Shown here piece after piece: positions 12,304 to 50,617 of a DNA stretch of 64,000 nucleotides. Where the stretch lies: NCBI GenBank assembly GCA_030650275.1, contig JAUSEK010000019.1:144-64143 (forward strand), written 5' to 3'. The stretch comes from Candidatus Omnitrophota bacterium (GTDB taxonomy: Bacteria > Omnitrophota > Gorgyraeia > Zapsychrales > Fredricksoniimonadaceae). The notes under the pieces were generated by a model. It ran no database searches. It saw only the letters and a program-made list of their open reading frames with translations, and was not told where the DNA came from. A program made the position numbers and the translations under genes. Position 1 is the first letter of the stretch, and the number at the start of each line of letters is the position of its first letter.

Positions 12304-12341
12304 AATCGTCTCCTAAATGACCCCGCCGTCGGCGGGGGAAT

Positions 12342-12620: not shown

Positions 12621-12829
12621 TCAATGATATCTGATGATTCATAGAGCGCTTTGCCGTTGATGACCAGACACGGCACTTGGGTCTTGCCGCCGATCTTGAT
12701 GAGTTCATCGCGGAAAGAAGGGTTTGCGTGGGTATCTTTCATGGGCACGCTGATATTTTCTTTGGACAGAAAGTCGCGCACGCGGCCGCAATACGGACAG
12801 CCCTGAAAATGATAAAGGGTCAATGGCAT
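12599..12829 (-). CDS. Glutaredoxin (dithiol CPYC type).
   Basis: CPYC active site and a 76-aa thioredoxin fold. Confidence 0.75.
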   Translation of the reverse strand: MPLTLYHFQGCPYCGRVRDFLSKENISVPMKDTHANPSFRDELIKIGGKTQVPCLVINGKALYESSDIIEWFKKNK

Positions 12830-12839
12830 AGTTGAGTCC

Positions 12840-14998: not shown

Positions 14999-15021
14999 AT
15001 TGGATGTGCTACAATGATCGC

Positions 15022-15273
15022 ATGGATCGAATATCTCTTGAGCGTATTTTGCGCGAACATTTCCAGCCGTCCGCGCTTGAAGTGATCGACGATTCTCCTT
15101 TGCATGCCGGCCACGCCGGGGCGGGTCAGGGCGGCCATTACCGCGTCGTCATCGTCGCTGAAGCGTTCAAGGGGCAAACATCCCTAAAAAAACACCGCAT
15201 GATCTACGACGCCCTGTCTTCCCATTGGCATGGCAATATCCACGCTTTGTCCATTCGGGCCTCATGTCCGTAA
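15022..15273 (+). CDS. bolA: BolA family transcriptional regulator.
   Basis: FQPSALEVIDDSPLHAGH....HYRVVIVAEAFKGQTSLKKHRMIYDAL....IHALSI aligns motif-for-motif with E. coli BolA. Confidence 0.8.
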   Translation: MDRISLERILREHFQPSALEVIDDSPLHAGHAGAGQGGHYRVVIVAEAFKGQTSLKKHRMIYDALSSHWHGNIHALSIRASCP

Positions 15274-15274
15274 T

Positions 15275-16663: not shown

Positions 16664-17631
16664 ATTTTAGATAAACTTTCTTCTAGATATTTTTCTAAAC
16701 GTGCAATGGTCGGCTCCAGCGTCGTGTATTGCATTAATTCCATACGCACTTGGGCAATGTTCGCCAGGCCTTTGAGATAGCCCGCGTAATGTTTGCGGAA
16801 GGTGATGACCCCGCCTTTTTCGCCTTTGTGCGCCACGTTGAGTTTCAGATGTTCCATGCAGGTCTGGATACGTTCTTCAACGGACGGTTCCGGCAAATGG
16901 GAGCCGGTTTTCAGATAATATTTGGTTTGCTTGAAGATCCACGGATTGGCGATGGCGCCGCGGCCGATCATGACCCCGTCGCATCCGGTCGCGAACATGG
17001 CCTGGACGTCCTCGGGGGAGGCGATGTCCCCGTTGCCGATGACAGGGATCTTAACGGCTTTTTTAATTTTCTCCAGCCAGGACCAGTCGGCAAAACCGTT
17101 ATGGGCTTGGGCACGGGTGCGGCAGTGCAGGGTGAGCGCCTGCGCGCCGGCATCCTCCACCATCTTTGCCACGTCGGTGATGACGATGCTTTCCTCGTCC
17201 CACCCTAAGCGTGTTTTGACCGTGACCGGCAATTTCGTGCCCTTGACCGTGGCTTTGACAATGGCCTCAAACAGGGGAAGGTCGCGCAAAAGTCCGGCGC
17301 CTTCATTGCGCGCCACGTGGTTTTTGACCCAGCATCCGCAATTGACGTCAATAAAATCCGGTTTGAGGCGTTCAATGGCCTGGGCCGCGCCGGACATGGC
17401 CTCGGGCCGTCCGCCGAATATCTGGATGGCCACCGGCCGTTCCTCATCGCAGATCTCTATTTTTTCCATGATGCGGGGGATGTCGCGGATGATCCCCTCG
17501 GAAGAGGTGAATTCCGTATACACGATGTCCGCGCCCAGGCGTTTGCAGATGACGCGAAACGGCATTTCCGTCACGTCTTCCATGGGCGCCAGGCACAGGG
17601 GTTTGTCGATGGTCAGGGAACCGATTTTCAT
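16660..17631 (-). CDS. tRNA-dihydrouridine synthase.
   Basis: DKPLCLAPMEDVTEMPFR is the Dus family N-terminal motif. Confidence 0.8.
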   Translation of the reverse strand: MKIGSLTIDKPLCLAPMEDVTEMPFRVICKRLGADIVYTEFTSSEGIIRDIPRIMEKIEICDEERPVAIQIFGGRPEAMSGAAQAIERLKPDFIDVNCGCWVKNHVARNEGAGLLRDLPLFEAIVKATVKGTKLPVTVKTRLGWDEESIVITDVAKMVEDAGAQALTLHCRTRAQAHNGFADWSWLEKIKKAVKIPVIGNGDIASPEDVQAMFATGCDGVMIGRGAIANPWIFKQTKYYLKTGSHLPEPSVEERIQTCMEHLKLNVAHKGEKGGVITFRKHYAGYLKGLANIAQVRMELMQYTTLEPTIARLEKYLEESLSKI

Positions 17632-35549: not shown

Positions 35550-36605
35550 ATGAATAATTGGCCAATACCAGAGTTTACAAAAAGCCAAGTCAGTAAGGCC
35601 GGGGAAACATTAATTAACCCTACCTCTCCATTACAACAGGTAATGGCATTTCGAATACTCAATAATTGGCGTTCTTGTCACGGGTATCCAATTAATACTT
35701 TTCAATCTACTTTAAGGAAGAAGCTTGTTGCGATTGGAGTTCCTAAAGCTATCGTCGCGCAACGTTTAAAAAGAACACCTTCAATTATTAGAAAATTGAA
35801 AAGATTTAAGCATATGCAGCTTTCAAGAATGCAAGATATTGGAGGACTAAGAGCAGTGGTTAGGAATTTAGAGCAACTTCGTGCTTTGGAGAGTAATTAT
35901 GCTAAAAGCCGATTTGAGCATTTTTTTGTAAGTAAAGATGATTATATTCTCTCCCCCAAGAAATCAGGGTATCGGGGGGTTCATATTATTTATAAATATC
36001 GTAATAAAAAAGTGCCTGTATACGATGGTTTATTGCTCGAACTTCAAATTAGAACTGATTTACAACACGCCTGGGCAACAGCGGTAGAGACAATTGATAC
36101 ATTTTTAGAATTTTCATTAAAAGCAAGCGAAGGACCAAGAAGATGGCTTAAGTTTTTTGCTTTAGTAGGATCAGCATTTGCGCATTTAGAAGAAACAACA
36201 CCAGTTCCTGAGTATGGGCATTTATCAAAACGTGAAACATTTCTGGAGGTTGTACAGGCGGCTAAAGGGCTTGGTGTACGTCATAAATTAAGTGCTTTCT
36301 CTATTGTTGCAAATCATATTTTGACTGATGAGAAAACCAGTAGCTACCATTATCATTTAATCGAATTAAATCCTGCTGAGAAAACTGTTAGCCTTCGATC
36401 ATTTGGGCGGGATCAGGTTGAGTTAGCTAATGAGGAATATTCCAAGAAAGAGCAGCGTATTTTAAAAGGTGAAAAGTTGCAAATTGTTCTTGTTTCAGCG
36501 GGAAATATTGAAACATTAAAGCGGGCCTATCCTAATTATTTCTTGGATACCAAGAATTTTGTTCAAAGGTTAGATGAAATTGAGACATTAGTTGGAAAAC
36601 TATAA
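35550..36605 (+). CDS. RelA/SpoT-domain (alarmone-synthetase fold) protein of 351 aa with a ~160-aa C-terminal extension. Candidate CapRel-like fused toxSAS toxin-antitoxin defense protein.
   Basis: Synthetase motifs appear in order: basic Syn1 (..AIGVPKAIVAQRLKRTPSIIRKLKR..), DIGGLRAVV, GYRGVHIIY and ELQIRTDLQHAWA. There is no separate small antitoxin ORF beside it. The gene is AT-rich and sits at the island edge next to a Type I R-M system. Confidence 0.7.
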   Translation: MNNWPIPEFTKSQVSKAGETLINPTSPLQQVMAFRILNNWRSCHGYPINTFQSTLRKKLVAIGVPKAIVAQRLKRTPSIIRKLKRFKHMQLSRMQDIGGLRAVVRNLEQLRALESNYAKSRFEHFFVSKDDYILSPKKSGYRGVHIIYKYRNKKVPVYDGLLLELQIRTDLQHAWATAVETIDTFLEFSLKASEGPRRWLKFFALVGSAFAHLEETTPVPEYGHLSKRETFLEVVQAAKGLGVRHKLSAFSIVANHILTDEKTSSYHYHLIELNPAEKTVSLRSFGRDQVELANEEYSKKEQRILKGEKLQIVLVSAGNIETLKRAYPNYFLDTKNFVQRLDEIETLVGKL

Positions 36606-36660
36606 GAAATAGTAATTCTGATCAATAATGCCCAGCGGATTTGTTAAGGGAGAAAGCATA

Positions 36661-38235
36661 ATGACTGAAAAACAAAGAAAGAAGAACATTAAAAGTATTG
36701 AAGAAACCTTGTGGGATTCGGCAAATAAGCTCCGTGGTTCGGTTGAGCCATCAGAATACAAGCATGTGGTGCTGGGACTGATATTCCTGAAGTTTGCCAG
36801 CGACAAGTTTGAGGAACGCAAGCAGGAATTGATTGCCGAGGGCAAAAAGAAGTATTTAGACATGGTGGAGTTTTACACCAGCAAGAATGTGTTCTATCTA
36901 GCTGAAATCTCACGCTGGAGTTATTTGATCGGAAATGCCAAGCAAGACGACATTGCCATAAAGATTGATACAGCCCTTTTTACCGTTGAGAAGAACAACC
37001 CTGCTCTCAAAGGCGCTTTGCCTGACAATTATTATTCACGAATGAATCTGGATGGAAGCAAGCTGGCGGCTTTGCTCGACACCATCAACAATATTAACAC
37101 CCTTAAAGACAAGCAGCAGGACATTGTAGGCAGGGTGTATGAATACTTCTTGAGTAAGTTCGCCATTGCAGAAGGAAAAGGCAAAGGAGAATTCTACACT
37201 CCCAAGAGTATTGTAAACCTGATTGCAGAGATGATTGAGCCTTACAAAGGGAAGATTTATGACCCTTGTTGCGGTTCGGGCGGCATGTTTGTGCAGAGCA
37301 TGAAGTTTATTGAAAGCCATCACGGAAATAAAAAAGACATTTCCATCTACGGGCAGGAAGCAATTACCACTACTTACAAGTTGGCAAAAATGAATTTAGC
37401 CATTCGGGGCATCAGTGCCAACCTAGGCGATGTGGCAGAGAATACTTTCTTTCGTGATCAGCACAAAGATCTGAAAGCCGATTACATCATGGCTAACCCA
37501 CCTTTCAATCAAAGCCAGTGGCGGGCAGACAACGAACTTACTAACGATCCGCGATGGGCTGGCTACGATGTTCCGCCAACAAGCAATGCTAACTATGCGT
37601 GGATTCTAAACATGGTGAGTAAACTATCTGAAAACGGTGCGGCTGGTTTTGTTTTGGCGAATGGTGCATTGAGTGCCGACGGAACGGAGAAAGCTATTCG
37701 CAGAAAATTGATCGAGAATAATTTGGTGGAAGCAATCATGGTTTTACCTAAAGGCATGTTTTATACAACACCAATTAGCGTTACACTTTGGTTTATGAAT
37801 AGAAATAAAAAAGCAAGAACTATTGAACTAAATGGTGAAATTAAGAAATATCGCAACCGAGAGAGAGAAATCTTATTTTTTGATTTAAGAAAGGTGGGGG
37901 AACCTTTTGAAAAGAAATTCGTGCAGTTTTCAGAAACCGCTATTAAGCAAATAACCGATACCTTTCATAATTGGCAACAGGCTGGTTTTGAGAAAACATA
38001 TCAGAATACGCCAGAGTTTTGCCGCAGCGTATCATTTGAGGAAATAGAGAAGAAAGATTTCTCACTGGTACCAAGCAAGTATATTGAGTTTGTAAATCGT
38101 GATGAGAATATTGACTTTGACGATAAGATGCAGAGTTTACAAACGGAATTTGCCAACCTGCTGAAAATCGAAGAAGAGTCGAAGAAAGATCTATTAATCG
38201 TTTTTAAAGAATTGGGCTATGAAATTAAATTATAA
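36661..38235 (+). CDS. hsdM: Type I restriction-modification system, DNA methyltransferase subunit.
   Basis: HsdM N-terminal domain, an N6-MTase fold with catalytic NPPF (MANPPFNQSQW), and a SAM motif. The ATG at 36661 is preceded by an AAGGGAG RBS. Confidence 0.9.
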   Translation: MTEKQRKKNIKSIEETLWDSANKLRGSVEPSEYKHVVLGLIFLKFASDKFEERKQELIAEGKKKYLDMVEFYTSKNVFYLAEISRWSYLIGNAKQDDIAIKIDTALFTVEKNNPALKGALPDNYYSRMNLDGSKLAALLDTINNINTLKDKQQDIVGRVYEYFLSKFAIAEGKGKGEFYTPKSIVNLIAEMIEPYKGKIYDPCCGSGGMFVQSMKFIESHHGNKKDISIYGQEAITTTYKLAKMNLAIRGISANLGDVAENTFFRDQHKDLKADYIMANPPFNQSQWRADNELTNDPRWAGYDVPPTSNANYAWILNMVSKLSENGAAGFVLANGALSADGTEKAIRRKLIENNLVEAIMVLPKGMFYTTPISVTLWFMNRNKKARTIELNGEIKKYRNREREILFFDLRKVGEPFEKKFVQFSETAIKQITDTFHNWQQAGFEKTYQNTPEFCRSVSFEEIEKKDFSLVPSKYIEFVNRDENIDFDDKMQSLQTEFANLLKIEEESKKDLLIVFKELGYEIKL

Positions 38236-39445
38236 CAAACTTGGTCAGTATATTAAGGAAGTAAATGAAAGAAATAGTGATTTGGCTATTACCAAACTTA
38301 TTGGCGTAAGTATGGAGAAAACATTTATTTCTTCCGTTGCTAATATTGTTGATACAGATATGTCCGTTTATAAGATTCTAAAGAAAGGACAACTTGCTTG
38401 TAAGTTGATGAGTGTAGGAAGAGATGAAAAGCTTCCTGTGGATTTATATAAAAATGATGAACCTGCCATCGTTTCGTCTGCTTATTATGTTTTTGAACCA
38501 ATAGACAACAAGATTCTATTGTCAGAATATTTATTTATGTGGTTATGCCGTCCGGAGAATGATAGATACATTGGTTTTATAAGTGGTGGAGATGTCAGAG
38601 GAGGCATATCATGGGAAACATTTTGTGATATTCCTATTAAAGTTCCCCACCCTGCAAAACAAAAAGAAATTGTAAAAGAATACAACGCCATTGTAAAACG
38701 CATAGCTTTCAACAGTCAGTTTATTCAGAAATTAGAAGAAACAGCACAGGCAATTTACAAGCAATGGTTTGTTGATTTTGAATTTCCTAATGAGAGTAGA
38801 AAGCCCTACAGATCCAATAATGGTGAAATGGAATTTAATGAAAAATTAGAAAGAGAAATCCCAAAGGGGTGGAAAGTTGATGTAATTTCAAAGCTAGTAA
38901 CGGTAAAAGATGGCACACATGATTCACCCGAACCTACAGAGGTTGGTCATCCCTTGGTTACTTCAACGCACTTGAATCTATACGACCTTTCTTTGAATGA
39001 AACCTATAATATTAGCGCAGAAGATTTCAATCAAGCTAATAAACGGAGCAAAGTTGATAAGCACGACATTCTTTTTAGTATGATTGGCACGATTGGTTTA
39101 GTTAATTATGTTTTATATGACAATATAAATTTTGCAATTAAAAATGTGGGGCTTTTTAAGACATCTGAGAGAAAAGAAGTCGCAGAATACATTCTTTATT
39201 TCTTAAAGAGTGACTATTTGAAGTTACACATTCAATCAAGTTTATTAGGAAGCACTCAAAACTATGTAACATTAGACTTTTTAAGGACAATTCCTATTTT
39301 GATTCCTTCCAATAATATTTTTATACAATTTGAAGAATGTGCTGGGAAGATTGTTAATAATATTTATTTAAAAGTAAAAGAAAACAATGCTCTTAAAACA
39401 GTAAAGAATTTATTGCTTTCAAAACTTGCGACTATAGAGAATTAA
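38219..39445 (+). CDS. hsdS: Type I restriction-modification system, specificity subunit.
   Basis: Two target-recognition domains separated by conserved helical repeats; sits between hsdM and hsdR. Confidence 0.85.
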   Translation: MKLNYNKLGQYIKEVNERNSDLAITKLIGVSMEKTFISSVANIVDTDMSVYKILKKGQLACKLMSVGRDEKLPVDLYKNDEPAIVSSAYYVFEPIDNKILLSEYLFMWLCRPENDRYIGFISGGDVRGGISWETFCDIPIKVPHPAKQKEIVKEYNAIVKRIAFNSQFIQKLEETAQAIYKQWFVDFEFPNESRKPYRSNNGEMEFNEKLEREIPKGWKVDVISKLVTVKDGTHDSPEPTEVGHPLVTSTHLNLYDLSLNETYNISAEDFNQANKRSKVDKHDILFSMIGTIGLVNYVLYDNINFAIKNVGLFKTSERKEVAEYILYFLKSDYLKLHIQSSLLGSTQNYVTLDFLRTIPILIPSNNIFIQFEECAGKIVNNIYLKVKENNALKTVKNLLLSKLATIEN

Positions 39446-39448
39446 AAA

Positions 39449-42400
39449 ATGTTCAACGAGGAATCATTAGAAAAAGCCGTCATTGAGCTATTTGCAGGGC
39501 AACAAATCCCGCACTGCAAAGGTGAGACCATTCATAAAGAAATGAGTGATGTCTTGCTTCGCGATGATTTGAAGAAGTTTTTGCTCAATCAATACGCTGC
39601 TGAAGATATTACTCAGCAGGAAATTGAAAGCATCATCCGTAGTTTAGACTTTTTTCCAAGTTCAGCTTTATACGAAAGTAATAAAGCCATCATAAAATTA
39701 TTGGCAGATGGCTTTACAATAAAGAGGGCAGACCGTAGTAAGAAGGATCTCCGCATTCATCTGATAGACTTTGTAACAGACAATAACATTTATAAGTTCG
39801 TGAACCAATTGGAAATATTAGGTTACGAAAAACGTATCCCTGACGGCATTGTTTATATCAATGGCTTGCCATTAGTAGTAATCGAATTTAAAAGCGCAGT
39901 AAAAGAAAATACCACCGTCAAAGATGCCTACACTCAGTTAACGGTTCGCTACCGTAGGGATATTCCAGAGTTGTTTAAATACAATGCTTTTTGTGTAATA
40001 AGCGATGGCGTGAATAACAAAATAGGCTCTCTTTTTGCTCAATATGATTTCTTTTACGCATGGCGGAAAGTAAATCCTGAAGATGAAGCGGTAGATGGCA
40101 TCAATTCGCTTTATAGCATGGTGCAGGGCTTGTTTAACAAACAGCGCCTAAAAGATGTAATTCGTAACTTCATTTATTTCCCTGACACAGCTAAAGACGA
40201 TATAAAGATTGTATGCCGCTATCCGCAATACTACGCCGCTAACAAATTGTTTGATAGCGTTAAGTTGAATATGCGACCACACGGAAGCGGAAAGGGCGGA
40301 ACTTATTTCGGGGCAACTGGCTGCGGCAAAAGTTTCACCATGCTATATCTCACGCGGTTGCTCATGAAAAGCCCACACTTTGCAAGCCCGACCATTGTAT
40401 TGATCACCGATCGAACTGATTTAGACGACCAGCTATCAACACAATTTACCAATGCCAAAAGTTTTATTGGCGATGAAAATGTCATCAGCGTAGAAACCCG
40501 TGCCGAACTTAAAACACTGTTACAGAACAGAAAAAGTGGCGGTGTTTTTCTTACCACCATTCACAAGTTTACAGAAAGCACTGAGTTGCTCACCGATAGA
40601 TCAAATGTGATTTGTATTTCAGACGAAGCGCACCGTTCACAGATCAACCTTGACCAAAGAATAGAAGTTACCGATCAAGGGGTAGCTAAGAAATTCGGCT
40701 TTGCCAAGTACCTGCACGATTCTTTACCACAGGCTACTTACGTGGGCTTCACCGGTACGCCTATTGATGCAACGCTCGATGTGTTTGGTGAGGTAGTAGA
40801 TGCCTACACCATGAAGGAATCAGTGAACGATGAAATTACCGTTAGAATCGTTTATGAAGGCAGAGCCGCTAAAGTATTACTCAATGAGCAGAAACTGAAA
40901 GAGATTGAAGAATATTACAAGAAGTGTTCGGAAGAAGGCGCGAATGAATATCAGGTGGAAGAAAGTAAAAGAGTCGTTACGCAAATGGAAGTTATTTTGG
41001 GCGACCCAAAGCGATTGAAATTAGTAGCCGCAGACTTTGTGGAACATTACGAAAAGCGCATTGAAGAAGGATCTACCATAAGAGGCAAAGCAATGTTTGT
41101 AGCCAGTAGCCGCCCCATTGCTTACGATTTGTATAAAGAAATCATTGCCTTACGACCAGAGTGGGCTGAAGCAAAAGAATGCGAGGAAGGCGTAGAATTG
41201 ACTGCAGAAGAAAAGAGAGAGCTAAAGCCCATTGAGAAAATCAAAATGGTCATGACTCGGCATAGAGATGATCCAAAAGAGCTGTATGACATGCTTGGAA
41301 CAAAAGAAAGCAGAAAAGAGCTAGACCGGCAATTTAAGATTACAAAATCGAATTTCAAAATTGCAATAGTCGTTGATATGTGGATAACCGGCTTTGATGT
41401 TCCATTTTTAGATACTATGTATATCGATAAGCCCATTCAGCAACATTCATTGATACAAACAATCTCCCGAGTGAATCGTGTGTACGAAGGCAAAGAAGCG
41501 GGATTGGTGGTGGACTACATTGGAATTAAAACCAATATGAATATTGCTTTGGCGAAATATACAAAAGTTGGTAGTGATGATTTTGAAGATGTAGGCAAAG
41601 CGGTTGTAATTGTAAAAGATCAGCTGGACTTGCTTGCAAAGCTCTTTCACAAGTTTGATCTACAACCTTTCTTTAACGGGACAGCAATGCAGCAGCTAAG
41701 TTGCCTTAATAACGCAGCAGAGTTTGTCCAGTTGACAGATGAAATGGAAAAGCGTTTTATTGGATTAACCAAGAAGTTACGATCTGCGTATAGCCTTTGC
41801 TGCAGCAGCGAAGGGCTTAGCGCTAAAGAAAGAGACCACATCCATTTTTATTTTGCCGTTAAAGCCATTATCCACAAATTAACAAAAGGCGATGCGCCCG
41901 ATACGGCACAGATGAATGACAAAGTGAGGGAAATGATTAAAGAGGCCTTGATCAGCGATGGCGTAGAAGAGATTTTCAAGCTAGATAAGAACGACCCAAA
42001 GAACAGTACAGATATTTTCAGCGATGAATACATGGCAAAGATAGAGAAAATTACATTGCCGAATACTAAAATCAAGTTGCTTCAGAAATTGCTGATTCAA
42101 GCAATTGAGGAATTTAAGAAGGTAAACAGAATTAAAGGTGTTGATTTTACCAAGAAGATGAAAAAGCTGGTTGATCTGTATAATGAAAGAAAAGATTTTC
42201 AGGCAATGCAAAGCGATGTGTTGGACGATGTAGCCGAACAGTTTGCGAAGCTGTATAGAGATTTGCAGAAGGAGCGCAACTCATTCATGGATTTAGGAAT
42301 TGATTTTGAAGAAAAGGCATTTTATGACATTCTGAAAGCCATTGCACTGAAATACAAGTTTGAATATCCCGAAGATAAATTGATTGTACTTTCACAAGCA

Positions 42401-42589
42401 GTTAAAAAGATTGTGGACGATAAAGCGAAATATACTGATTGGTCTCATCGTGATGACATCAAAGCAGAATTAAAGATGGATTTGATTTTAGTTCTCGCTG
42501 AACATGGTTACCCCCCAGTACCCAAAGATGAAGTTTTTAAAGAAATATTTGAACAGGCCGAGAATTTCAAGAAATATAGTGAATTATAA
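39449..42589 (+). CDS. hsdR: Type I restriction enzyme, R (endonuclease/translocase) subunit.
   Basis: A 1046-aa protein with an N-terminal PD-(D/E)xK-like nuclease region, SF2 motifs (GSGKS..., DEAH in ISDEAHRSQ), and a C-terminal helical domain. Confidence 0.9.
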   Translation: MFNEESLEKAVIELFAGQQIPHCKGETIHKEMSDVLLRDDLKKFLLNQYAAEDITQQEIESIIRSLDFFPSSALYESNKAIIKLLADGFTIKRADRSKKDLRIHLIDFVTDNNIYKFVNQLEILGYEKRIPDGIVYINGLPLVVIEFKSAVKENTTVKDAYTQLTVRYRRDIPELFKYNAFCVISDGVNNKIGSLFAQYDFFYAWRKVNPEDEAVDGINSLYSMVQGLFNKQRLKDVIRNFIYFPDTAKDDIKIVCRYPQYYAANKLFDSVKLNMRPHGSGKGGTYFGATGCGKSFTMLYLTRLLMKSPHFASPTIVLITDRTDLDDQLSTQFTNAKSFIGDENVISVETRAELKTLLQNRKSGGVFLTTIHKFTESTELLTDRSNVICISDEAHRSQINLDQRIEVTDQGVAKKFGFAKYLHDSLPQATYVGFTGTPIDATLDVFGEVVDAYTMKESVNDEITVRIVYEGRAAKVLLNEQKLKEIEEYYKKCSEEGANEYQVEESKRVVTQMEVILGDPKRLKLVAADFVEHYEKRIEEGSTIRGKAMFVASSRPIAYDLYKEIIALRPEWAEAKECEEGVELTAEEKRELKPIEKIKMVMTRHRDDPKELYDMLGTKESRKELDRQFKITKSNFKIAIVVDMWITGFDVPFLDTMYIDKPIQQHSLIQTISRVNRVYEGKEAGLVVDYIGIKTNMNIALAKYTKVGSDDFEDVGKAVVIVKDQLDLLAKLFHKFDLQPFFNGTAMQQLSCLNNAAEFVQLTDEMEKRFIGLTKKLRSAYSLCCSSEGLSAKERDHIHFYFAVKAIIHKLTKGDAPDTAQMNDKVREMIKEALISDGVEEIFKLDKNDPKNSTDIFSDEYMAKIEKITLPNTKIKLLQKLLIQAIEEFKKVNRIKGVDFTKKMKKLVDLYNERKDFQAMQSDVLDDVAEQFAKLYRDLQKERNSFMDLGIDFEEKAFYDILKAIALKYKFEYPEDKLIVLSQAVKKIVDDKAKYTDWSHRDDIKAELKMDLILVLAEHGYPPVPKDEVFKEIFEQAENFKKYSEL

Positions 42590-42647: not shown

Positions 42648-42676
42648 AGAAATAGTAACAGGCGCTAATTTTTTTA
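42648..42676. repeat. Junction motif AGAAATAGTAACAGGCGCTAATTTTTTTA.
   Basis: A near-identical copy at 49313-49340 directly abuts the mazG-like start codon. Confidence 0.7.
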
Positions 42677-42733: not shown

Positions 42734-44380
42734 TTGGGAACGAAAATAAGAAAATATAATCTCAAGGAACTCGTTCGTTTTATCGAGTCGAAGCATGTTG
42801 CTGTCCCAGAGTTTCAGCGCGGGTTTGTCTGGAAAACGGGACAGGTTAAGAAGCTTTTCGATAGTCTCATAAAACAATATCCTGTGGGTAGTTTTATTCT
42901 TTGGGAAACAAACAAGCATATCGATGCCCGAACTTTGGATGGTGAAAAATTGCCTCAAAGAAAGTTCTTGATATTAGATGGGCAACAGAGAATGGCAAGT
43001 ATATATTACCTTTGTCGCCAAAAGAAATTTGTTGAGCCTCGTGTGAAAGATAAGTTTCATGAAACCTGCGATAATCGCGAACGTCAAGTTATTGACTTCG
43101 AGAAGTTTTATATCGACAGAAACAAAAAGGGACCGGTTCTGGAATATGCTCGGGAAAGTTCGTGTGAATTGGATTTTAATAAATTCTCTCGTCTCGTTCG
43201 AAATAGCTATCGGGTGCCTGTAATAACTATTTCATTGAACGACTATCACCACGCGATAGAAGTATTTGAGCGTATCAATCAGGCGGGCACTCGTATTTCA
43301 ACGGAATCAATATTCTTATCAGAGACTTGGAATCAGCATTCCAATATTGGTAAAATTTTGAGAACATGGAAAAGGCAAAACAGAGAAGCTCTTACCAGCG
43401 GAATAGACACTGTTATCTTTATACATGTTTTCGCGATAATTTTACAGTTAGAGAAACGGAAGCAACAAACAGTCGAGATAGGAATTACTACGCTAAAAAA
43501 GATAGCCGAAGAAGTTCATCAGCATACAAGTAACACATATAACAAGATTTTTAAAGATGTCGTAGATTCAGTGGCCCGCGCAGTTACTCATTTAAAAGAA
43601 GAATATGAGATCGTTTCCCTTAGCGATTTGCCTTCGCAGACAATGATTACGATTTTAGCGGTATTTTCTTACTATCGAAAAAGAGCACCTACTAAGAAGC
43701 AGGCAACTGAGTTGAGAAAATGGTTCTGGCGATCGTCACTTTCTAATCGGTATATCGGTTCTGGCTACTCGCAACATATTGGCATGGATGCTAAGAAGAT
43801 GCGTGATTTGGCTGAGCATAATCGCGACTTGAAAATCTCCCCAGCGGATATAAAAATATTTGCGAAAGTTAAAGGTGTTGATATACGTGCTGGTCGTTCG
43901 ACTTACCGTAATATTATTAAACAGGCTCTTTGGCAACAAACCCCAATTTTTATAAATGGAAAAAAGATAAGTCGGGATGATGTTGAATCCGGCCAGCATA
44001 AACCAGAAGATGACCATTTTTTCCCTTATGATTTATATCGAAAAGGTATCTCTGGACAAGAAATCAATAATATATTGAATATTCATTTTTTGAATGGAGA
44101 CGAGAATAGCAGAAAAAAGAATCGTTTACCATCGGAGTGGTTACAAGAACAGATTGACGATATTGGAGCAAATGCTAGCATAGTCGAAAAATATTTTTCC
44201 AGTCAGCTGCTGCCATTTAGAAATTTGAAAGATCTTCGCAGATATGAGCGTGCCTTTAAAGAAAAAGGGATGCGGGCGAAACAGAGTAAGTTTGCGCGTA
44301 GTTATCAGAGTTTTTTATGGCGTAGATTTAAGCTGTTTGAAAAAACGCTTAATCGCCTACAAAATGGCCGATTGAAATAG
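42734..44380 (+). CDS. GmrSD-family protein (DUF262 N-terminal ParB/Srx-like NTPase domain plus DUF1524 His-Me finger C-terminus). A type IV modification-dependent restriction endonuclease-like protein.
   Basis: The DUF262 hallmark DGQQR (ILDGQQRMASIYY) and a C-terminal H..EDDHFFPY His-Me-finger-like motif. TTG start per the track; AT-rich. Confidence 0.75.
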   Translation: MGTKIRKYNLKELVRFIESKHVAVPEFQRGFVWKTGQVKKLFDSLIKQYPVGSFILWETNKHIDARTLDGEKLPQRKFLILDGQQRMASIYYLCRQKKFVEPRVKDKFHETCDNRERQVIDFEKFYIDRNKKGPVLEYARESSCELDFNKFSRLVRNSYRVPVITISLNDYHHAIEVFERINQAGTRISTESIFLSETWNQHSNIGKILRTWKRQNREALTSGIDTVIFIHVFAIILQLEKRKQQTVEIGITTLKKIAEEVHQHTSNTYNKIFKDVVDSVARAVTHLKEEYEIVSLSDLPSQTMITILAVFSYYRKRAPTKKQATELRKWFWRSSLSNRYIGSGYSQHIGMDAKKMRDLAEHNRDLKISPADIKIFAKVKGVDIRAGRSTYRNIIKQALWQQTPIFINGKKISRDDVESGQHKPEDDHFFPYDLYRKGISGQEINNILNIHFLNGDENSRKKNRLPSEWLQEQIDDIGANASIVEKYFSSQLLPFRNLKDLRRYERAFKEKGMRAKQSKFARSYQSFLWRRFKLFEKTLNRLQNGRLK

Positions 44381-44388
44381 GATTCAGT

Positions 44389-44492
44389 TGGAAACAATTT
44401 CACAATCATAAGGATGTGGCGTTGTCCCTAGTTTTGCAGGCGGCGGAGGTGCTGGAGCATTTCTAGTGGAAATCGCCGCAAGAGGTCAAGAA
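44389..44492 (+). pseudogene. Degenerate fragment of a MazG-like gene, corresponding to residues ~20-54 of the intact copy at 49341, with an in-frame TAG.
   Basis: About 88% nucleotide identity to 49397-49502. Its translation KQFHNHKDVALSLVLQAAEVLEHF*WKSPQEVK compares with the intact KQFHNHKDVALSLVLEAAEVLEHFQWKSPQEVK. Confidence 0.8.
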
Positions 44493-44766
44493 AGTAGCTA
44501 AGAGTTTACTTGCGACGCTTAAACATGGGCAGTGAGTGCTTGATTGGTGTAAAAGACAACAAACGCGAGCAGCTGTCCGTGTGGCTATTGGCCGGGTCTC
44601 GGATGAATTATCGCAACGTTATGGTTGCGATCTTTTTGAATCAAAGTGTGAGGTCATTTATTGACACATTTATGATAGTTATTTTGGTGAGGGAAGAAGT
44701 TATTTTGTAAGAAATTGAGTTTTTATATGAAAAATGCAACAGACCTAAACTATATAAAGACTCGCG

Positions 44767-47700
44767 ATGATTCCTAAATTCAACAAAGGCGACCAGGTTC
44801 AGCGTACAAACGACTCCAGTCGTATCGGGGTTATTGTTGATGTGGATGTTTTACATGGTGGAATTCAATATTATAAAGTTTTTTTTGATGGAGAAGAACG
44901 TCCGGTTCTTTCAGAGTTTGATATTCGGCCCCACATAGAGGGGGTTTCGCCAGTGGATGTCTTAAGGCTGGGGCACTTGGGATTTTTCGAAGAATTTCAG
45001 TTGAACATCCTTTATCAGAAGCTTTCTAAGATTAATATCCTTACAAATAACCTTTATTCATTTAATGCCTCCCGAACCAATTTTTATCCGTATCAGTTCA
45101 AGCCACTTCTCAAGTTTCTGGATTCTTTCAACAATCGCGTTCTTATTGCGGATGAGGTAGGTCTTGGTAAAACTATTGAGGCGGGTCTTATTTTTCAGGA
45201 ATTAAAAGCGAGGCAAAATCTCCAACGGATTCTTGTCGTTTGCCCGTCAGGTCTGAAAGACAAATGGAAGATGGAAATGGAACATCGCTTTGGGGAAGAA
45301 TTTAATATTTGGCGTCGGCCAGACCTCATGCGTTTCTTGGATAAGCTTGAGGAGTCTTATGCGGTTCAGTCCTTGAAGGTTATTATTCCACTTGAAACTA
45401 TTCGCTACAGGGGTGTAGTTGAACGAATAGAAGAGATCGGTCCTGCATTTGATTTGGTGATCATTGATGAAGCGCATCATATGCGAAATCAGACAACGCT
45501 GAACCATAGGACTGGAAAAGTTTTGAGCGATTTTGCAGATGCTATGGTTATGTTAACGGCAACCCCAGTGCAAATGGGGAATAGAGATCTTTTTAATTTA
45601 TTGCATATTTTAGATGATGAGAACTTTTCAAATCATCAAGTTTCGGAGGAACTCTTTACTCAAAATGAACCTGTTGTCTTGGCCCAAACATGTTTGAGCC
45701 ATATTCCCGCAGATCTTGAAAGAGCTGGGGAGTTGTTAACCGATTTTTTTGCGGATTTAGATAAGGCAAGGAAGCCTTATCAGCATAATCTTTGTTTGGA
45801 TGTTATTGATCGGATGAAGCAGCTCAAGGCAGTTGATCAGCGATTGCCAGAATATCGTCGCCAGTTAGTCGATATTCAGAGGAATGTGTCGGAATTAAAC
45901 TTTCTAGGACATATTCTAAATCGCACTCGCAAGAGAGATGTTAAAGAAAAGATCGTGTTACGACAGGCTAAAACTGTGAAGGTGGATCTATCTGATAAGG
46001 AGAAGGTGTTTTATAAGGCTGTAGAGGCCTTTGTGCGGGCGGATGCAAAGAGGCGGGGCATTGATTCAAGGGTGATTGGATGGATGCTGATCAATCCGTT
46101 AAGACGTACGGCTTCGTGTATATCAGCTATGGTGGAGCATTATAAGCAGCATTTAGATAATTCTGAAGTTGAGGATGATGATCCTCTAGATGATGAGAGT
46201 GATGAGAAAACAGAGTCAAAAAGCTCAGGTTTTGAATTGGCGCGTAATAATCTTTTGGAAATTATTAACACTTGGGGAGGGTCTACTGAAGATACGAAAT
46301 TTCAAAAGTTTATGGAGGCTATTCAGAAGTTAAAGAAAGAGGATGGGAAGCTCAAAATAATGGTTTTTGCTTTTTATAAGGCAACCTTACGTTATCTTTC
46401 TAAAAAATTGAAAGCTGCGGGGATAAAAAATCTTATTATTTCAGGAGACGTGCCTTATAAAGAGCGAGCGGCATTGATTAATCAATTTAAGGACGAAAAT
46501 TCTTCTATAGAAGTGTTGTTGTCATCAAGGGTCGGCAGTGAAGGTTTAGATTTTCAATTTTGCGATACCATGGTTAATTATGATCTTCCATGGAACCCAA
46601 TGGAGGTTGAGCAGAGAATAGGACGCCTTGATCGTATTGGGCAGCGCTCCCAAAAGATCAGAATTTATAACATGTCTTTGGCGGATACAATAGAGGATCG
46701 GGTGCTTATGCGGCTTTATGAACGGATCGGGATTTTTGAACGTTCGATAGGAGGATTGGAGCCTATTATGGGCGCGCAGATCCAGGAACTTGTTACTGAG
46801 GTGTTGACCAAAGAGCTTTCTGCTAAAGAGCAGGAGGATCTTGTTGAACGCAAGGCATTGATTTTGGAGAAGAAAGAACGGGAGATGCGTGAGCTGGAGG
46901 AAAAATCGGCAAAATTTATTGGGGTAGATACTTATTTTGAAGATGAGATTGCAAGAATACAGAAAACAAGAAGATATATAACTCCGCAGCAGTTGAAAAA
47001 GTTTATTCTTTATTTTTTAGAGCGGTTCTTCCCAAAGACTCGCTTTGAATATTCCGAAAAGACTTGCCTAGGGAAGATTGTGGCTGATCAAGCGTTGCAA
47101 GGTTTTATCTCAAAATGTGAAAAGTCACATGATTTATCAAGATTTTATTCTACGGATGGGGTTGAAATTACCTTTGATTCTGATACGGCTTTGCAGAATC
47201 CCAGTATAGAGTTTCTAAATAATACGCATCCACTAACAGCTCTTATCTTAAGGTATTATCAAGAAAATCCGATTCATCACAATAATGCTTATTTTGTTAA
47301 ACTTGATACGAATATTGCGCCTAAGGGGAAATATTTTTTTTATGTATTCCGACTTAAAATCGAAGCGGCGCGACACACCAACACGATTGAGACAGTTTTT
47401 ATTGATGAAACCCTTAATGAGATTTGCCCAGGAGAAGATTCCGAGGTTTTGTTAGGTGAGATGCTAGAGAGCGGGCGGAGATCGGAAGATGGAAGCTCTT
47501 TTTCTATTGATCCAGGTTATTTGGATCAGTCCCATCGTATGGCGCTAGGGACATTTTTAAAGAATAAGGAACAAAGAAAATCTGATGCGGAACGGAGCAA
47601 TAACCTTTTGATTGAAGGTCGAGTAGCCAGTATTCGATTAAATTTTGAAAAGAAGATTAAACAGAAACAGAAATTATTAGAAAGGGGTATTCAGGGGAAT

Positions 47701-47847
47701 AAGAAAAAGAGTTATCTTACGATGCTAGAGGGGGAGATTAGGAAATATAGAAATCAAATGGAGGCTGGCATCACTTTGGAGGAGACCAAACGGAGCGTCA
47801 GTTGTTCGCATGTTGAAATTGCTGCAGGGATTCTGGAGATCGTGTAG
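44767..47847 (+). CDS. SNF2-family (Swi2/Snf2, RapA/HepA-like) helicase/translocase of 1026 aa with an N-terminal Tudor/SH3-like domain.
   Basis: Motif I DEVGLGKTIEAG, motif II DEAHHMRN, and a helicase-C region (..LSSRVGSEGLDFQFCDTMVNYDLPWNP...QRIGRLDRIGQ). The N-terminus KGDQVQR...RIGVIVDV....YYKVFFDG resembles the RapA N-terminal Tudor-like fold. Confidence 0.85.
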   Translation: MIPKFNKGDQVQRTNDSSRIGVIVDVDVLHGGIQYYKVFFDGEERPVLSEFDIRPHIEGVSPVDVLRLGHLGFFEEFQLNILYQKLSKINILTNNLYSFNASRTNFYPYQFKPLLKFLDSFNNRVLIADEVGLGKTIEAGLIFQELKARQNLQRILVVCPSGLKDKWKMEMEHRFGEEFNIWRRPDLMRFLDKLEESYAVQSLKVIIPLETIRYRGVVERIEEIGPAFDLVIIDEAHHMRNQTTLNHRTGKVLSDFADAMVMLTATPVQMGNRDLFNLLHILDDENFSNHQVSEELFTQNEPVVLAQTCLSHIPADLERAGELLTDFFADLDKARKPYQHNLCLDVIDRMKQLKAVDQRLPEYRRQLVDIQRNVSELNFLGHILNRTRKRDVKEKIVLRQAKTVKVDLSDKEKVFYKAVEAFVRADAKRRGIDSRVIGWMLINPLRRTASCISAMVEHYKQHLDNSEVEDDDPLDDESDEKTESKSSGFELARNNLLEIINTWGGSTEDTKFQKFMEAIQKLKKEDGKLKIMVFAFYKATLRYLSKKLKAAGIKNLIISGDVPYKERAALINQFKDENSSIEVLLSSRVGSEGLDFQFCDTMVNYDLPWNPMEVEQRIGRLDRIGQRSQKIRIYNMSLADTIEDRVLMRLYERIGIFERSIGGLEPIMGAQIQELVTEVLTKELSAKEQEDLVERKALILEKKEREMRELEEKSAKFIGVDTYFEDEIARIQKTRRYITPQQLKKFILYFLERFFPKTRFEYSEKTCLGKIVADQALQGFISKCEKSHDLSRFYSTDGVEITFDSDTALQNPSIEFLNNTHPLTALILRYYQENPIHHNNAYFVKLDTNIAPKGKYFFYVFRLKIEAARHTNTIETVFIDETLNEICPGEDSEVLLGEMLESGRRSEDGSSFSIDPGYLDQSHRMALGTFLKNKEQRKSDAERSNNLLIEGRVASIRLNFEKKIKQKQKLLERGIQGNKKKSYLTMLEGEIRKYRNQMEAGITLEETKRSVSCSHVEIAAGILEIV

Positions 47848-49309
47848 AGTTTTTTTTCAAAAAAAGTCGTTATCTGGTCAGAAAGTCAAACCGGAAGATC
47901 AGACCGAAAGTCCTGCCGCTGCGCCTGCAATTATCAAGACATCATCTGGGAAGCTTCCCATTCATGTTGGTATTGATTTTGGAACAAGTTGTTCTAAAGC
48001 GTGTTATCAAATCCAAGATGGAAGGGAGAAGGTTTACTTAATTGATTTTAAACATCAGTTAAAGTCTTTTCCTTCATACGTTATTCCTTCAGTTCTTATT
48101 GGTGATGAGCAAAATCGGATATATATAGGTGAAGAGGCAGGTGAGGCTGTAGAAGCAGGAAAATGGGGATTAGGGTTAAGAAATTTTAAAACACTCTTAG
48201 CGTCAGTTCAGAATGAGGATTTTGTTGACAAAGTTTCCGCATCTCATTTCAAGGAAAATTTACAACTATTAGGTCTTGATAAGGAGGGCGTTGGAGTATC
48301 AGAAGTTACGTCTCTTTATGTTGCCTATATGATGCACCGATGCAGAGATTTTCTAAAGCGTCAATATGTAGGCAGAGAATTGCATATTAATTATAATGTG
48401 TGTATTCCTATCGATTATGCTGAAGATAATCTCGTAAGAAAAGACTTTGAAAAAATGTTGGCTGTAGCTCAGGAACTCTACAGATTTTGGGAACGAGAGA
48501 AAGGTGAGTCGCGCAGTTTATTACGTCTTGCCAGTGAATTAAAAAGCCAGTGTGTATATGATGAAACTCAAATGAATGTTTTTGCTATTCCTGAGGCTGT
48601 CGCAGAACTGGTTGGTTATCGTAAGTCTGCGGATAGGGAGGCAGGCTTGTACGCTCTTATTGATATTGGTTCGGGAACAACCGACGTATCGATTTTTAGA
48701 CTTGACCGAGGTTTGAAAGAGCGTGCTGTGTGGTTGTCATCAGATGCTATACCTATGGGCATGTATCAATTAGAGAAATTAGTTGTGAAAGCTTTGAGGA
48801 AACAAGGACATGATGATTCGTTGGGTGAAGTTTATAGAGCTTTCGAGAATTTTAAGGAAATTTCAACCGGGCTTCAGGAGGATGTGTTCTTAAGAATAAG
48901 AAAGAGGATTAGGGCTTTTATTAGAAGTGATGAGTATAAAAGACCTTGGAGATCTGCTCATATCAAATTGAGGAAACAAAGAAGAGAGAGTTTGGATGAT
49001 ATAAAGATTGTTTTTCTCGCAGGAGGAGGAGCAAAGATTGCCTTGGCCAAAGGCATGAATTTTCTTTTTAGTTCATCGCCGCTTGCTTCATCGGCGGTTT
49101 CTAAAAAGCCCTATAACTTGTCAGCGTTGTCCTGTTCTCCCAATCTAGAGGGTGCTTTGGTTTCTGATTTTTGGCGCCTATCCGTGGCTTATGGATTAAG
49201 TTTTCCAGCACCAAAGTTGGGAGAATATAAGCTTCCGAAAGATTTTCCAGAGGATAATCCGCCTTCTTTACCAATACAGGATTGGCCGGATAGGGATGAT
49301 ACGCGGTAA
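47810..49309 (+). CDS. Hsp70/actin-fold (ASKHA superfamily) ATPase of 499 aa. Its start overlaps the 3' end of the SNF2 gene by 38 nt.
   Basis: Phosphate-1 motif HVGIDFGTSCSKA (compare DnaK IGIDLGTTNS), a connect motif VFAIPEAVAELVGY, and phosphate-2 ALIDIGSGTTDVSIF (compare DnaK DLGGGTFDVS). Confidence 0.75.
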   Translation: MLKLLQGFWRSCRVFFQKKSLSGQKVKPEDQTESPAAAPAIIKTSSGKLPIHVGIDFGTSCSKACYQIQDGREKVYLIDFKHQLKSFPSYVIPSVLIGDEQNRIYIGEEAGEAVEAGKWGLGLRNFKTLLASVQNEDFVDKVSASHFKENLQLLGLDKEGVGVSEVTSLYVAYMMHRCRDFLKRQYVGRELHINYNVCIPIDYAEDNLVRKDFEKMLAVAQELYRFWEREKGESRSLLRLASELKSQCVYDETQMNVFAIPEAVAELVGYRKSADREAGLYALIDIGSGTTDVSIFRLDRGLKERAVWLSSDAIPMGMYQLEKLVVKALRKQGHDDSLGEVYRAFENFKEISTGLQEDVFLRIRKRIRAFIRSDEYKRPWRSAHIKLRKQRRESLDDIKIVFLAGGGAKIALAKGMNFLFSSSPLASSAVSKKPYNLSALSCSPNLEGALVSDFWRLSVAYGLSFPAPKLGEYKLPKDFPEDNPPSLPIQDWPDRDDTR

Positions 49310-49340
49310 AAAGAAATAGAGTGACAGGCGCTAATTTTTA

Positions 49341-49688
49341 ATGGCAGAAATCAAAACAATCACCGCAAAAATAAGAAAATTCCGCGATGAGCGGGATTGG
49401 AAGCAATTCCACAATCATAAGGACGTGGCGCTGTCTTTGGTCTTAGAGGCGGCAGAAGTGCTGGAGCATTTCCAGTGGAAATCGCCGCAAGAGGTCAAGG
49501 AACATGGCGAGGCCTGCAGGTCCGAGATCTCGGATGAGCTGGCGGATGTTGCCGTGTATTTATTTGAACTCGCGGATAATCTCGGGATCGATTTGTCAAA
49601 GGCCATTGATATCAAAATGAAGAAAAATGCCCTGAAATACCCGGTTGAGAAAGCCAGGGGCAGGCATACGAAATACAACAATCTTTAG
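49341..49688 (+). CDS. MazG-like nucleoside triphosphate pyrophosphohydrolase (small all-alpha NTP-PPase).
   Basis: EEA.E..E motifs in ..LEAAEVLEHF.. and ..ELADVAVYLFELA.. characteristic of MazG/HisE-type NTP-PPases; 115 aa. Confidence 0.75.
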   Translation: MAEIKTITAKIRKFRDERDWKQFHNHKDVALSLVLEAAEVLEHFQWKSPQEVKEHGEACRSEISDELADVAVYLFELADNLGIDLSKAIDIKMKKNALKYPVEKARGRHTKYNNL

Positions 49689-49692
49689 GTAG

Positions 49693-49775
49693 AAATTAAA
49701 CATTTGAAAATCGCGCCAGGAATCATTAGAATCATCCTTAGTCAAGCAGGGCTTCCCCGGCCGTAGTCTGTTTGA
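49693..49775 (+). promoter_or_regulatory. Repeat unit R1: near-consensus sigma70 promoter (TTGAAA-17nt-TAGAAT, with -35 at 49704-49709 and -10 at 49727-49732) plus a conserved leader GTCAAGCAGGGCTTCCCCGGCCGTAG, upstream of the ORF6N gene.
   Basis: Read directly; a 17-nt spacer. Copies R2 (50399-50482) and R3 (51801-51900) match at roughly 85-95%. Confidence 0.65.
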
Positions 49776-49828
49776 CAAAAATCCCCTGTAGTAAATCTAT
49801 TAACTTTTAATCTACAAGGGGGTATTCC

Positions 49829-50398: not shown

Positions 50399-50482
50399 GA
50401 GAAATTAACATTTGAAAACCGCGCCAGGAATCATTAGAATCATCCTTAGTCAAGCAGGGCTTCCCCGGCCGTGATCTGCTTG
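50399..50482 (+). promoter_or_regulatory. Repeat unit R2: TTGAAA (50412-50417) -17nt- TAGAAT (50435-50440) plus the conserved leader, upstream of the AbiEii gene.
   Basis: Read directly. Confidence 0.65.
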
Positions 50483-50617
50483 GTAAATTCCCCTCCAAGT
50501 GAGGACATTGATACGATTCTTCAAGGTGCCAATTTGGCTCCCCATGCGGAGCATCAGTCTTCTTGATACAATTTGACAATACTACTTATGAGTAGTATAC
50601 TTTCAGTGAGGCCAAAG

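Follow-up and report, generated by a model that had tools for sequence, protein, structure and literature searches.

Introduction

RapA-like SNF2 helicases are among the core components of the immune systems DISARM, BREX type 3, ARMADA and Hma, and an architecture with a single Tudor domain has been reported for BrxHII and related helicases (PMC12839542; PMC12458937). SNF2 proteins also stand next to chaperone-fold ATPases: operons that combine a GHKL ATPase with an SNF2 protein (MORC/paraMORC) are predicted restriction-modification (RM)-like systems (Iyer et al. 2008, PMC2292703). Hsp70-like proteins, too, have precedent in predicted defence, namely CnuD and CnuCD of type III CoCoNuT, which partner McrB-type GTPases (PMC11090510), and the PADLOC candidate PDC-M61B. 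Here we analyse a 64,000-nt stretch of Candidatus Omnitrophota DNA (metagenome-assembled genome GCA_030650275.1, contig JAUSEK010000019.1, positions 144 to 64,143; hereafter the window), in which the gene for a RapA-like SNF2 protein overlaps the gene for an ASKHA ATPase that resembles the nucleotide-binding domain (NBD) of Hsp70. Across more than 12 phyla, one archaeon included, about 37 loci have the two genes side by side. The pair is a candidate, and a good one, for a new immune module, and this two-gene version would provide a far simpler handle on the immune role of RapA-like SNF2 helicases.

The SNF2 and ATPase genes occur together

An initial annotation of the window, made from the letters and translated open reading frames (ORFs) alone, had proposed that the two genes make up an undescribed system; the ORF coordinates, lengths and 38-nt overlap that it gave are exact (Table 1), and its expectation that the genes would prove to be conserved neighbours is borne out by immediate adjacency across very distant taxa and by co-diversification. 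A scan that started from the ATPase and covered one genome per GTDB species returned 21 loci, 18 of them with a full-length homologue. In all 18, the immediate same-strand neighbour is an SNF2 protein of 1025-1060 amino acids (aa), 25-43% identical to that of the window, which lies upstream of the ATPase in 16 loci and downstream in two cyanobacterial ones. The hosts are a Methanosarcinaceae archaeon and bacteria assigned to the Alpha-, Beta-, Gamma- and Deltaproteobacteria, Synergistota, Victivallales, Verrucomicrobia, Cyanobacteria, Gemmatimonadota, Myxococcota and Acidobacteriota. The genes adjoin in the same way in seven more loci from metagenomes or genomes (among L022, L023, L104-L106 and L108-L110; loci are cited by L numbers), a WD40-fused variant among them.

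The converse test started from the SNF2 protein and scored 80 metagenome loci with profiles of both proteins. Where the SNF2 protein scores at least 623 bits and downstream sequence is available, the ATPase adjoins it in 11 of 11 loci, four other high scorers ending at a contig edge; at 615 bits or less, the ATPase is next door in none of 65 metagenome loci. The pairing is thus beyond chance, a strict two-way co-occurrence, and, judged by sequence, the SNF2 subfamily forms a clade of its own, set apart by its ATPase partner. The distance matrices of the two proteins correlate closely (Mantel r = 0.90 for 29 pairs), a value reached by none of 2000 permutations. The tight coupling suggested for the window by its overlap is the rule across loci, where junctions are mostly overlaps or gaps of a few bases (e.g., L001, L009, L011, L016, L018, L022, L108 and L109), consistent with co-translation. 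Clustering of all neighbouring ORFs yielded no third conserved gene; GmrSD recurs in only three loci and MazG in none. In L023 (6953-10038, on a 707-kb long-read contig) the SNF2 gene is split into two ORFs of 575 and 450 aa, either by a frameshift sequencing error or because it is a pseudogene.

The pair is horizontally mobile, as indicated by its AT-rich island and duplicated mazG segment in the window, its scattered taxonomy, archaeon included, and the integrase island of L110. An origin from phages or plasmids was considered and rejected: the pair has no match in 72,556 plasmids, and 2.9 million viral contigs yielded a single weak match, without SNF2.

The partner is a predicted Hsp70-type ATPase

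At the level of family models, the partner is barely recognisable. Pfam gives a borderline match to MreB-like_C, exactly at the cutoff of 27.8, with the FtsA and ParM models below cutoff; PF00012 (HSP70) has no match, and Hsp70/HscA models score about 20-25 bits, the HscA cutoffs lying above 600. In an AlphaFold2 model built from 37 homologues (predicted local distance difference test score, or pLDDT, of 84), the top Foldseek matches are the Hsp70 NBDs of BiP, DnaK and Hsc70 (E ~1e-13; template modelling score up to 0.6 on the target), and the best 50 structural matches in the PDB are all Hsp70-family NBDs. The family profile, run against PDB sequences, likewise finds Hsp70 NBDs (E 4e-6). Its alignment to Hsp70 (Kar2/BiP) equates GxDFGTS with phosphate-1, RxFK with the catalytic-Lys motif, PEAVA with that of the catalytic Glu, DxGxGTTD with phosphate-2 and GGG with the adenosine motif; the three ASKHA motifs named in the initial annotation are present and fall on the Hsp70 NBD motifs. 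Residues D56, K127, E262, D285, T290/T291 and G405-G406 show no variation, or next to none, in the family alignment, and we take the catalytic ones to be equivalent to D8, K70, E171, D194 and T199 of DnaK. Because the catalytic residues are conserved and align to Hsp70 motifs, the prediction is that the partner is catalytically active and an ATPase of Hsp70 rather than actin type.

Two familiar identities were tried and rejected. A canonical Hsp70 chaperone (DnaK, HscA or HscC) would share the catalytic set, but the partner has no substrate-binding domain (SBD) or lid and does not reach the family models; an actin-like protein of the ParM, MreB or FtsA kind is disfavoured by the family models, which are not reached, by the lack of plasmid matches and by the constant SNF2 neighbour. 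The model leaves no room for an SBD, since the chain ends about 90 aa past the adenosine motif and folds NBD-like throughout. Its C-terminus, which had been read as a long divergent addition, is not one: the NBD fold, with insertions, takes up all of residues ~47-488, and the C-terminal part consists of NBD lobe II and a short proline-rich tail. No conserved motif in the family alignment points to a hidden nuclease.

The N-terminal extension of about 45 aa noted at the outset is real, but it is not unusual, being a family feature made of a conserved amphipathic helix and a disordered linker. The helix has the family consensus MxxLxxFWKxFxK, a hydrophobic moment of 0.54 versus 0.36 for interior windows and a net charge of about +2.5; the linker varies in length and sequence across the family alignment. 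Because the helix is a conserved family feature, the ATG within the end of the SNF2 gene is validated as the start of the ATPase. Some relatives have, instead of the helix, a WD40 propeller, a Zn-ribbon or, in the cyanobacterial loci, a long coiled-coil-like extension, so that the ATPase N-terminus behaves as an exchangeable adaptor. In the WD40 variants (P0196, P0199, P0201 and P0191), a propeller of ~430 aa takes the place of the amphipathic helix; in L104 (1058-6816; L105 has the same genes), the WD40 form of the ATPase precedes the SNF2 gene, the order being reversed and the genes still adjacent.

The pair is widespread in bacteria and archaea, with hundreds of clusters at 50% identity: the ATPase family counts 720 at E<=1e-30 and 2402 at E<=1e-10. 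Among the matches listed, homologues are called 'hypothetical protein' wherever they are named, and most are unnamed.

The SNF2 protein belongs to a known family

The SNF2 protein carries the Pfam domains SNF2-rel_dom, Helicase_C and ResIII. Motifs I (DEVGLGKT, aa 129-136), II (DEAH, 234-237), III (ATP, 265-267) and VI (QRIGRxDRxGQ, 616-626) are invariant across the partner-linked subfamily, in keeping with the intact motifs I and II and helicase-C region first noted. Its top PADLOC model is DrmD PDLC02623, matched end to end with 547 bits, and PADLOC would label the protein an orphan DrmD; lesser, partial matches are to BrxHI/II, HmaA, DrmA and DpdE. The scores lie below the NCBIfam cutoffs for DISARM_DrmD (354 vs 610), DrmD_b (177 vs 950) and DpdE (209 vs 500). 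By sequence, the best solved relative is RapA, with ~19% identity and an alignment that begins at the second Tudor domain of RapA. Identity with RapA itself was rejected: the score for the RapA equivalog NF003426 is 251 bits where 576 is the cutoff, and a single β-barrel corresponds only to RapA's second Tudor domain.

An AlphaFold2 model built from database homologues (pLDDT 79) shows, in order, a single N-terminal β-barrel, the motor with its two lobes, a linker of helices, an α+β domain and a long helical hairpin. The N-terminal Tudor-like domain suspected from the letters is upheld by some 55 aa that align to the second Tudor of RapA and form this small β-barrel. When the model is searched against the PDB with Foldseek, RapA alone aligns over the full chain (E 3e-35); other SNF2 proteins, Sth1-Arp7-Arp9 included, match at the core only (E ~1e-16). 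Sequence conservation drops over the C-terminal 330 residues, where it is poor, and a search of the alignment found no conserved catalytic or PD-(D/E)xK-type motif among them; the α+β/helical region is probably non-catalytic.

The SNF2 protein is, then, a member of the already known DrmD/BrxHII/ArmA (RapA-like) family. The remote homology searches that the initial annotation had proposed lead to RapA over the full length of the SNF2 protein and to Hsp70 NBDs over the ATPase with its C-terminus. Neither gene is a degraded housekeeping rapA or dnaK paralogue, the case that would have undone the proposal: the RapA and Hsp70/HscA scores given above are far too low, and both sets of catalytic motifs are invariant.

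A sister clade has a GHKL partner

SNF2 loci that score 550-615 bits have a different downstream gene, which encodes a sacsin-type GHKL (Hsp90-like) ATPase of ~1000-1150 aa, with a partial match to TmtA of Tiamat in PADLOC. Their SNF2 protein matches the same PADLOC DrmD profile as that of the window. This sister clade, represented by metagenome loci L038-L054 (e.g., L039:3962-10127 and L046:3224-10174), is a second conserved pair of an SNF2 protein and a chaperone-fold ATPase. Because the GHKL ATPase holds the same position beside the same kind of motor, the Hsp70-like partner looks like a non-homologous replacement, a swap of one chaperone-fold ATP switch for another. An Hsp70-partnered SNF2 protein and a GHKL/TmtA protein can co-occur, as L010 demonstrates: there, on the Devosia rhodophyticola chromosome (11850-17411), the pair has a full-length Tiamat TmtA homologue, in two ORFs, 0.6 kb downstream. 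With the GHKL-partnered clade, a general principle of design suggests itself, in which a DNA motor is combined with a chaperone-type ATP switch.

The island in the window

The pair lies in an AT-rich island (~35.5-54 kb) with a GC content of 0.34-0.48, versus 0.50-0.58 outside it, flanked by moaA-like and murB-like genes; the island genes listed in Table 1 are all on the + strand. The initial annotation's view of AT-rich genes in a defence island agrees with the GC content of the pair (0.40), with the GmrSD_N gene on its 5' side and with the MazG-like, ORF6N, AbiEii, helix-turn-helix (HTH) and Bro-N genes on its 3' side. No tRNA gene was found in the window, at the island borders or elsewhere.

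Table 1. The SNF2-ATPase pair, its parts and its surroundings (window coordinates)
Feature	Position	Strand	Remarks
RelA_SpoT-domain protein	35550-36605	+	Full-length match to PADLOC candidate PDC-S33, E 2.5e-121
Complete type I RM set hsdM-hsdS-hsdR	36628-42589	+	hsdM, 36628-38235
GmrSD_N protein	42734-44380	+	Pfam; immediately on the 5' side of the pair
mazG-like remnant (left boundary)	44388..44493	+	106 nt, 87% identical to 49397-49502; spacing 5009 nt
Terminator-like hairpin, then T-run	44610..44631	+	Consensus scan, pattern match only
AT-rich region 5' of the pair	44632..44766	+	TTGACA at ~44662
SNF2 gene, RapA/DrmD/BrxHII-type	44767..47847	+	1026 aa, ATG
Single Tudor-like β-barrel	44788..44937	+	aa ~8-57; aligns to RapA residues 55-110; model strands 10-55
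SNF2 motor core	45079..46746	+	aa ~105-660; motifs I, II, III and VI intact; Pfam and alignment
RapA-like C-terminal region	46747..47844	+	aa ~661-1026; helical linker, α+β domain, long helical hairpin
Overlap of the two genes	47810..47847	+	38 nt; ATPase start inside the end of the SNF2 gene
Hsp70-NBD-like ASKHA ATPase gene	47810..49309	+	499 aa, ATG
Basic amphipathic N-terminal helix, MLKLLQGFWRSCRVFFQKK	47810..47866	+	Model helix 3-17
Disordered linker, variable length	47867..47947	+	aa ~20-46; pLDDT <50 for residues 17-44
Hsp70-type nucleotide-binding fold	47948..49273	+	aa ~47-488, with insertions
Intact MazG-like gene	49341..49688	+	Pfam MazG-like; directly 3' of the pair; carries the right repeat copy, 49397-49502
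Island genes 3' of mazG		+	ORF6N protein (PDC-S05); AbiEii nucleotidyltransferase with HTH partner; Bro-N protein (PDC-S13)

The mazG-like remnant, which corresponds to MazG aa ~19-54, reads in frame WKQFHNHKDVALSLVLQAAEVLEHF, a stop codon and then WKSPQEVK, the in-frame stop marking it as a pseudogene fragment. The terminator-like hairpin stands between the pair and both this remnant and the GmrSD gene. A scan of the AT-rich region that follows found no promoter-like site, the nearest on the + strand being at 44337-44365 and 44850-44879; the region is presumed to hold the pair's own promoter and 5' untranslated region. Recombination between the mazG copies may, as the repeats suggest, have inserted or shuffled a cassette with the pair in it. 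Because the 106-nt repeat brackets the pair and the terminator-like hairpin precedes it, the two genes probably arrived, or were shuffled, as a unit.

Other repeats mark the island as well. Direct repeats of 86 nt (91% identity; 49694-49779 and 50402-50487) bracket the ORF6N gene, and a 20-nt repeat (95% identity; 42654-42673 and 49320-49339) precedes the start codons of GmrSD and mazG; the island looks as if it had been assembled from cassettes with common junction sequences. The GmrSD-like ORF has a TTG start, a Pfam match limited to its N-terminal DUF262 half and PADLOC matches to the PDC-M55C and HEC-05/06 (BrxU-like) models; a C-terminal His-Me motif was recognised by eye only. The RelA_SpoT gene, the first of the island and directly 5' of the type I RM operon, may be a defence gene of the small-alarmone-synthetase type.

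Genomic neighbourhoods of the pair

Enrichment near known defence genes, which had been proposed as a check on the pair, takes the form of recurrence beside type I RM, GmrSD, BREX, Hma, ARMADA/DISARM-like, Tiamat and other genes, in a tally that is descriptive. The pair has known or candidate defence genes at its flanks in the window and in L001-L005, L010, L015, L016, L018, L022, L106 and L110. The pair lies directly 3' of hsdR in L004 and L022 and directly 3' of a GmrSD gene in the archaeal contig L001; in L110 it adjoins both hsdR and GmrSD on an integrase-bearing island, and in L015 it adjoins PDC-S68. A PADLOC scan that pooled 80 ORFs neighbouring the pair in 11 loci added matches to Tiamat, Lamassu, CBASS, Mokosh, DarG and MADS-like models, which, Tiamat in L010 aside, are not assigned to single loci.

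In several loci, the pair is embedded in a larger system. L005 (2672-20406) is a BREX locus in which the pair sits between brxC and pglX, with pglZ present; more embedded genes, Hypoth_Ymh and AAA_21, lie between pglX and pglZ. In L002 (22-11416), the pair comes after the genes for the HmaB methylase and the HmaC ATPase, the latter split into two ORFs, and because the 21.4-kb locus has no second SNF2-family ORF, the pair's SNF2 protein may stand in for HmaA. In L003, L016, L018 and L106, the pair is inside or beside ARMADA/DISARM-like arrays that comprise a second BrxHII-like SNF2, PglX-like/type IIG methyltransferases, DruE/YprA-like helicases, MZB/DUF1998 and UvrD; the BrxHII-like SNF2 of L003 and L018 is separate from the pair.

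Possible function

The explanation that we favour, at slightly better than even confidence, is that the pair is a self-contained, mobile two-gene conflict module, most likely directed against phages or other mobile genetic elements. The two genes would be co-transcribed and translationally coupled, and their products would act as a complex in which the Hsp70-like subunit serves as an ATP/ADP-driven switch. Its variable N-terminal module and its cleft may sense a cue or localise the complex, the basic amphipathic helix on a flexible tether found in the window being a possible membrane or partner-docking anchor. The switch would license the SNF2 motor, which would translocate on invading DNA and displace or stall DNA-bound machines such as RNA polymerase (RNAP) or the replisome; alternatively, the motor could hand the DNA over to neighbouring restriction complexes. 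Since neither protein has a recognisable nuclease, interference is proposed to work by remodelling, not by cleavage; Pfam and the alignments reveal no nuclease, methylase or toxin domain in either. A bolder form of this proposal, which we find rather doubtful, holds that such immunity is autonomous, nuclease-free and new in mechanism: an Hsp70-type switch with exchangeable sensors or anchors would gate a RapA-like motor that strips or stalls polymerases, the GHKL sister clade would make this a broader class, and the pair would be a prokaryotic functional counterpart of SNF2-actin/Arp modules. If the favoured explanation is true, an Hsp70-fold ATPase joins the repertoire of immune switches.

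Several points weigh against the favoured explanation. The defence role is inferred through guilt by association, and neither protein brings an effector domain that Pfam or the alignments would recognise. Loci L012, L023, L108 and L109 have no recognisable defence neighbours; the pair follows ftsA-ftsZ directly in L023 and lies among metabolic genes, after a BrnT toxin, in L109. By strict motif, the helix is present in 56 of 151 family members, so only part of the family carries it, and its membrane or docking role is conjectural. Co-diversification is no proof of physical interaction because it is expected for any co-inherited genes. Finally, the pair may not be autonomous, because it often adjoins or sits inside methyltransferase-based systems.

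This last point leads to the strongest rival, which we regard as possible and yet clearly the less probable: the pair would be a non-autonomous, interchangeable helicase module that serves methyltransferase-based systems (type I RM, BREX, Hma, ARMADA/DISARM), its SNF2 protein playing the part of BrxHII, DrmD, HmaA or ArmA and its Hsp70-like protein loading or regulating it, and the neighbouring system would contribute the effector and tell self from non-self. The full-length PADLOC match to DrmD and the BrxHII/RapA architecture fit such a module, as do the lack of a nuclease or methylase in the pair itself, its position directly after HmaB/HmaC as the sole SNF2 of L002 and between brxC and pglX in L005, its place inside the arrays of L003, L016, L018 and L106, and the type I RM genes adjacent to it in the window, L004, L022 and L110. 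Yet the same pair does without such systems nearby in L012, L023, L108 and L109, the systems beside it differ between loci, none of them being conserved, and in the window the hairpin and the mazG remnant keep the pair apart from hsdR and GmrSD. The arrays of L003 and L018, moreover, own a separate BrxHII-like SNF2, which makes the pair look like an embedded extra system, and such embedding is characteristic of defence genes that are independent (bioRxiv 10.1101/2024.01.29.577857).

A non-defensive role is improbable in our estimate, whether as an accessory to transcription or DNA maintenance, in which a RapA-like RNAP-recycling factor has a dedicated chaperone-like ATPase, or in mobile-element maintenance, for example by an actin-like partition protein and a helicase. 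RapA is indeed the closest solved full-length relative, the partner's Pfam matches are MreB-like_C and FtsA, no effector domain is present, and L023, L108 and L109 lack defence neighbours; but the RapA equivalog score is well short of its cutoff, and the exclusively Hsp70-family structural matches and conserved Hsp70-specific catalytic Lys are not those of a ParM- or MreB-like protein. The patchy, laterally transferred distribution in AT-rich or integrase-bearing islands, the lack of plasmid matches, the single weak match in viral contigs and the defence genes that recur beside the pair in most annotated loci also argue against it. Least credible of all is a decayed remnant of DISARM class 1 or BREX type 3, that is, an orphan DrmD/BrxHII beside an unrelated ASKHA gene. 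PADLOC does name the SNF2 protein DrmD, and rearrangement of the island is evident from the mazG pseudogene fragment; co-occurrence in about 37 loci across phyla, seen in both directions of testing, essentially refutes decay, and neither ORF is disrupted, their catalytic motifs are invariant, the NCBIfam DrmD models stay far below their cutoffs, and no DrmA, DrmB, DrmC, DrmMI, PglZ, BrxC or PglX is found among the annotated island ORFs.

Comparison with known systems

With DrmD, BrxHII, ArmA and HmaA, the SNF2 protein shares its family, the layout of a single Tudor domain, SNF2 core and RapA-like C-terminal domains, and residence in defence islands. DISARM, BREX type 3, ARMADA and Hma, by contrast, have no Hsp70-like component, and the window has none of their other defining genes. 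DISARM class 1 was rejected because drmA, drmB and drmC have no match among the annotated island ORFs (35.5-54 kb; Pfam and PADLOC) and DrmMI has none either, the sole methyltransferase of the island being hsdM of the complete hsdMSR set. Among the scanned window proteins, BREX type 3 fails for want of brxC, pglX(I), pglZ, brxA and brxF, and ARMADA and Hma for want of a YprA-like helicase with a PglX-like methyltransferase and of HmaB with HmaC, respectively. Escherichia coli RapA (HepA), which recycles RNAP, has the same Tudor-SNF2-C-terminal layout and is the sole whole-length match in the PDB; it has two Tudor domains where the pair's SNF2 protein has one, and it has no such partner, whereas the latter is accessory, island-borne, mobile and tied to its ATPase.

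CnuD of CoCoNuT, considered as a member of the same family, was ruled out by its McrB partner, its SBD next to the NBD and its degenerate ATPase motifs; the ATPase described here is an NBD only, with intact catalytic residues and an SNF2 partner. The PADLOC candidate PDC-M61 was likewise considered as a possible identity of the pair; its component PDC-M61B is the sole PADLOC model that touches this ATPase, in a weak match (35 bits, E 1e-9) that is absent in four of eight family members checked, and PDC-M61A is not among the best 25 of 47 PADLOC matches of the SNF2 protein. The SNF2 + GHKL operons and the sister clade resemble the pair in having a RapA-like SNF2 gene followed by that of a chaperone-fold ATPase, two genes in all, and differ from it in the fold, GHKL/Hsp90 there and Hsp70/ASKHA here; MORC-type operons, moreover, usually encode nucleases and methylases, which the pair does not.

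The eukaryotic SNF2 remodelers INO80, SWR1 and SWI/SNF-RSC combine an SNF2 motor with actin/Arp modules. They share with the pair an SNF2 motor and a dedicated ASKHA-fold ATPase subunit, a likeness meant as analogy and not as tested homology; their subunit is actin-like where that of the pair is Hsp70-like, and an HSA-type helix was not identified in the pair.

None of the helicase-containing defence systems listed in the initial annotation is known to include an Hsp70-like ATPase, and a pair of an SNF2 protein and an Hsp70-like protein is likewise not described in Pfam, NCBIfam, PADLOC v2 or the full-text literature searched. NCBI annotates the window proteins as 'helicase-related protein' and 'hypothetical protein'; because pipelines name the helicase either so or as an orphan 'DrmD' and leave its partner 'hypothetical', defining the pair would correct many genome annotations. 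Compared with the systems above, the SNF2 family itself is known, and what is apparently undescribed, and would be new, is an obligate Hsp70-fold partner on a RapA-like SNF2-based module.

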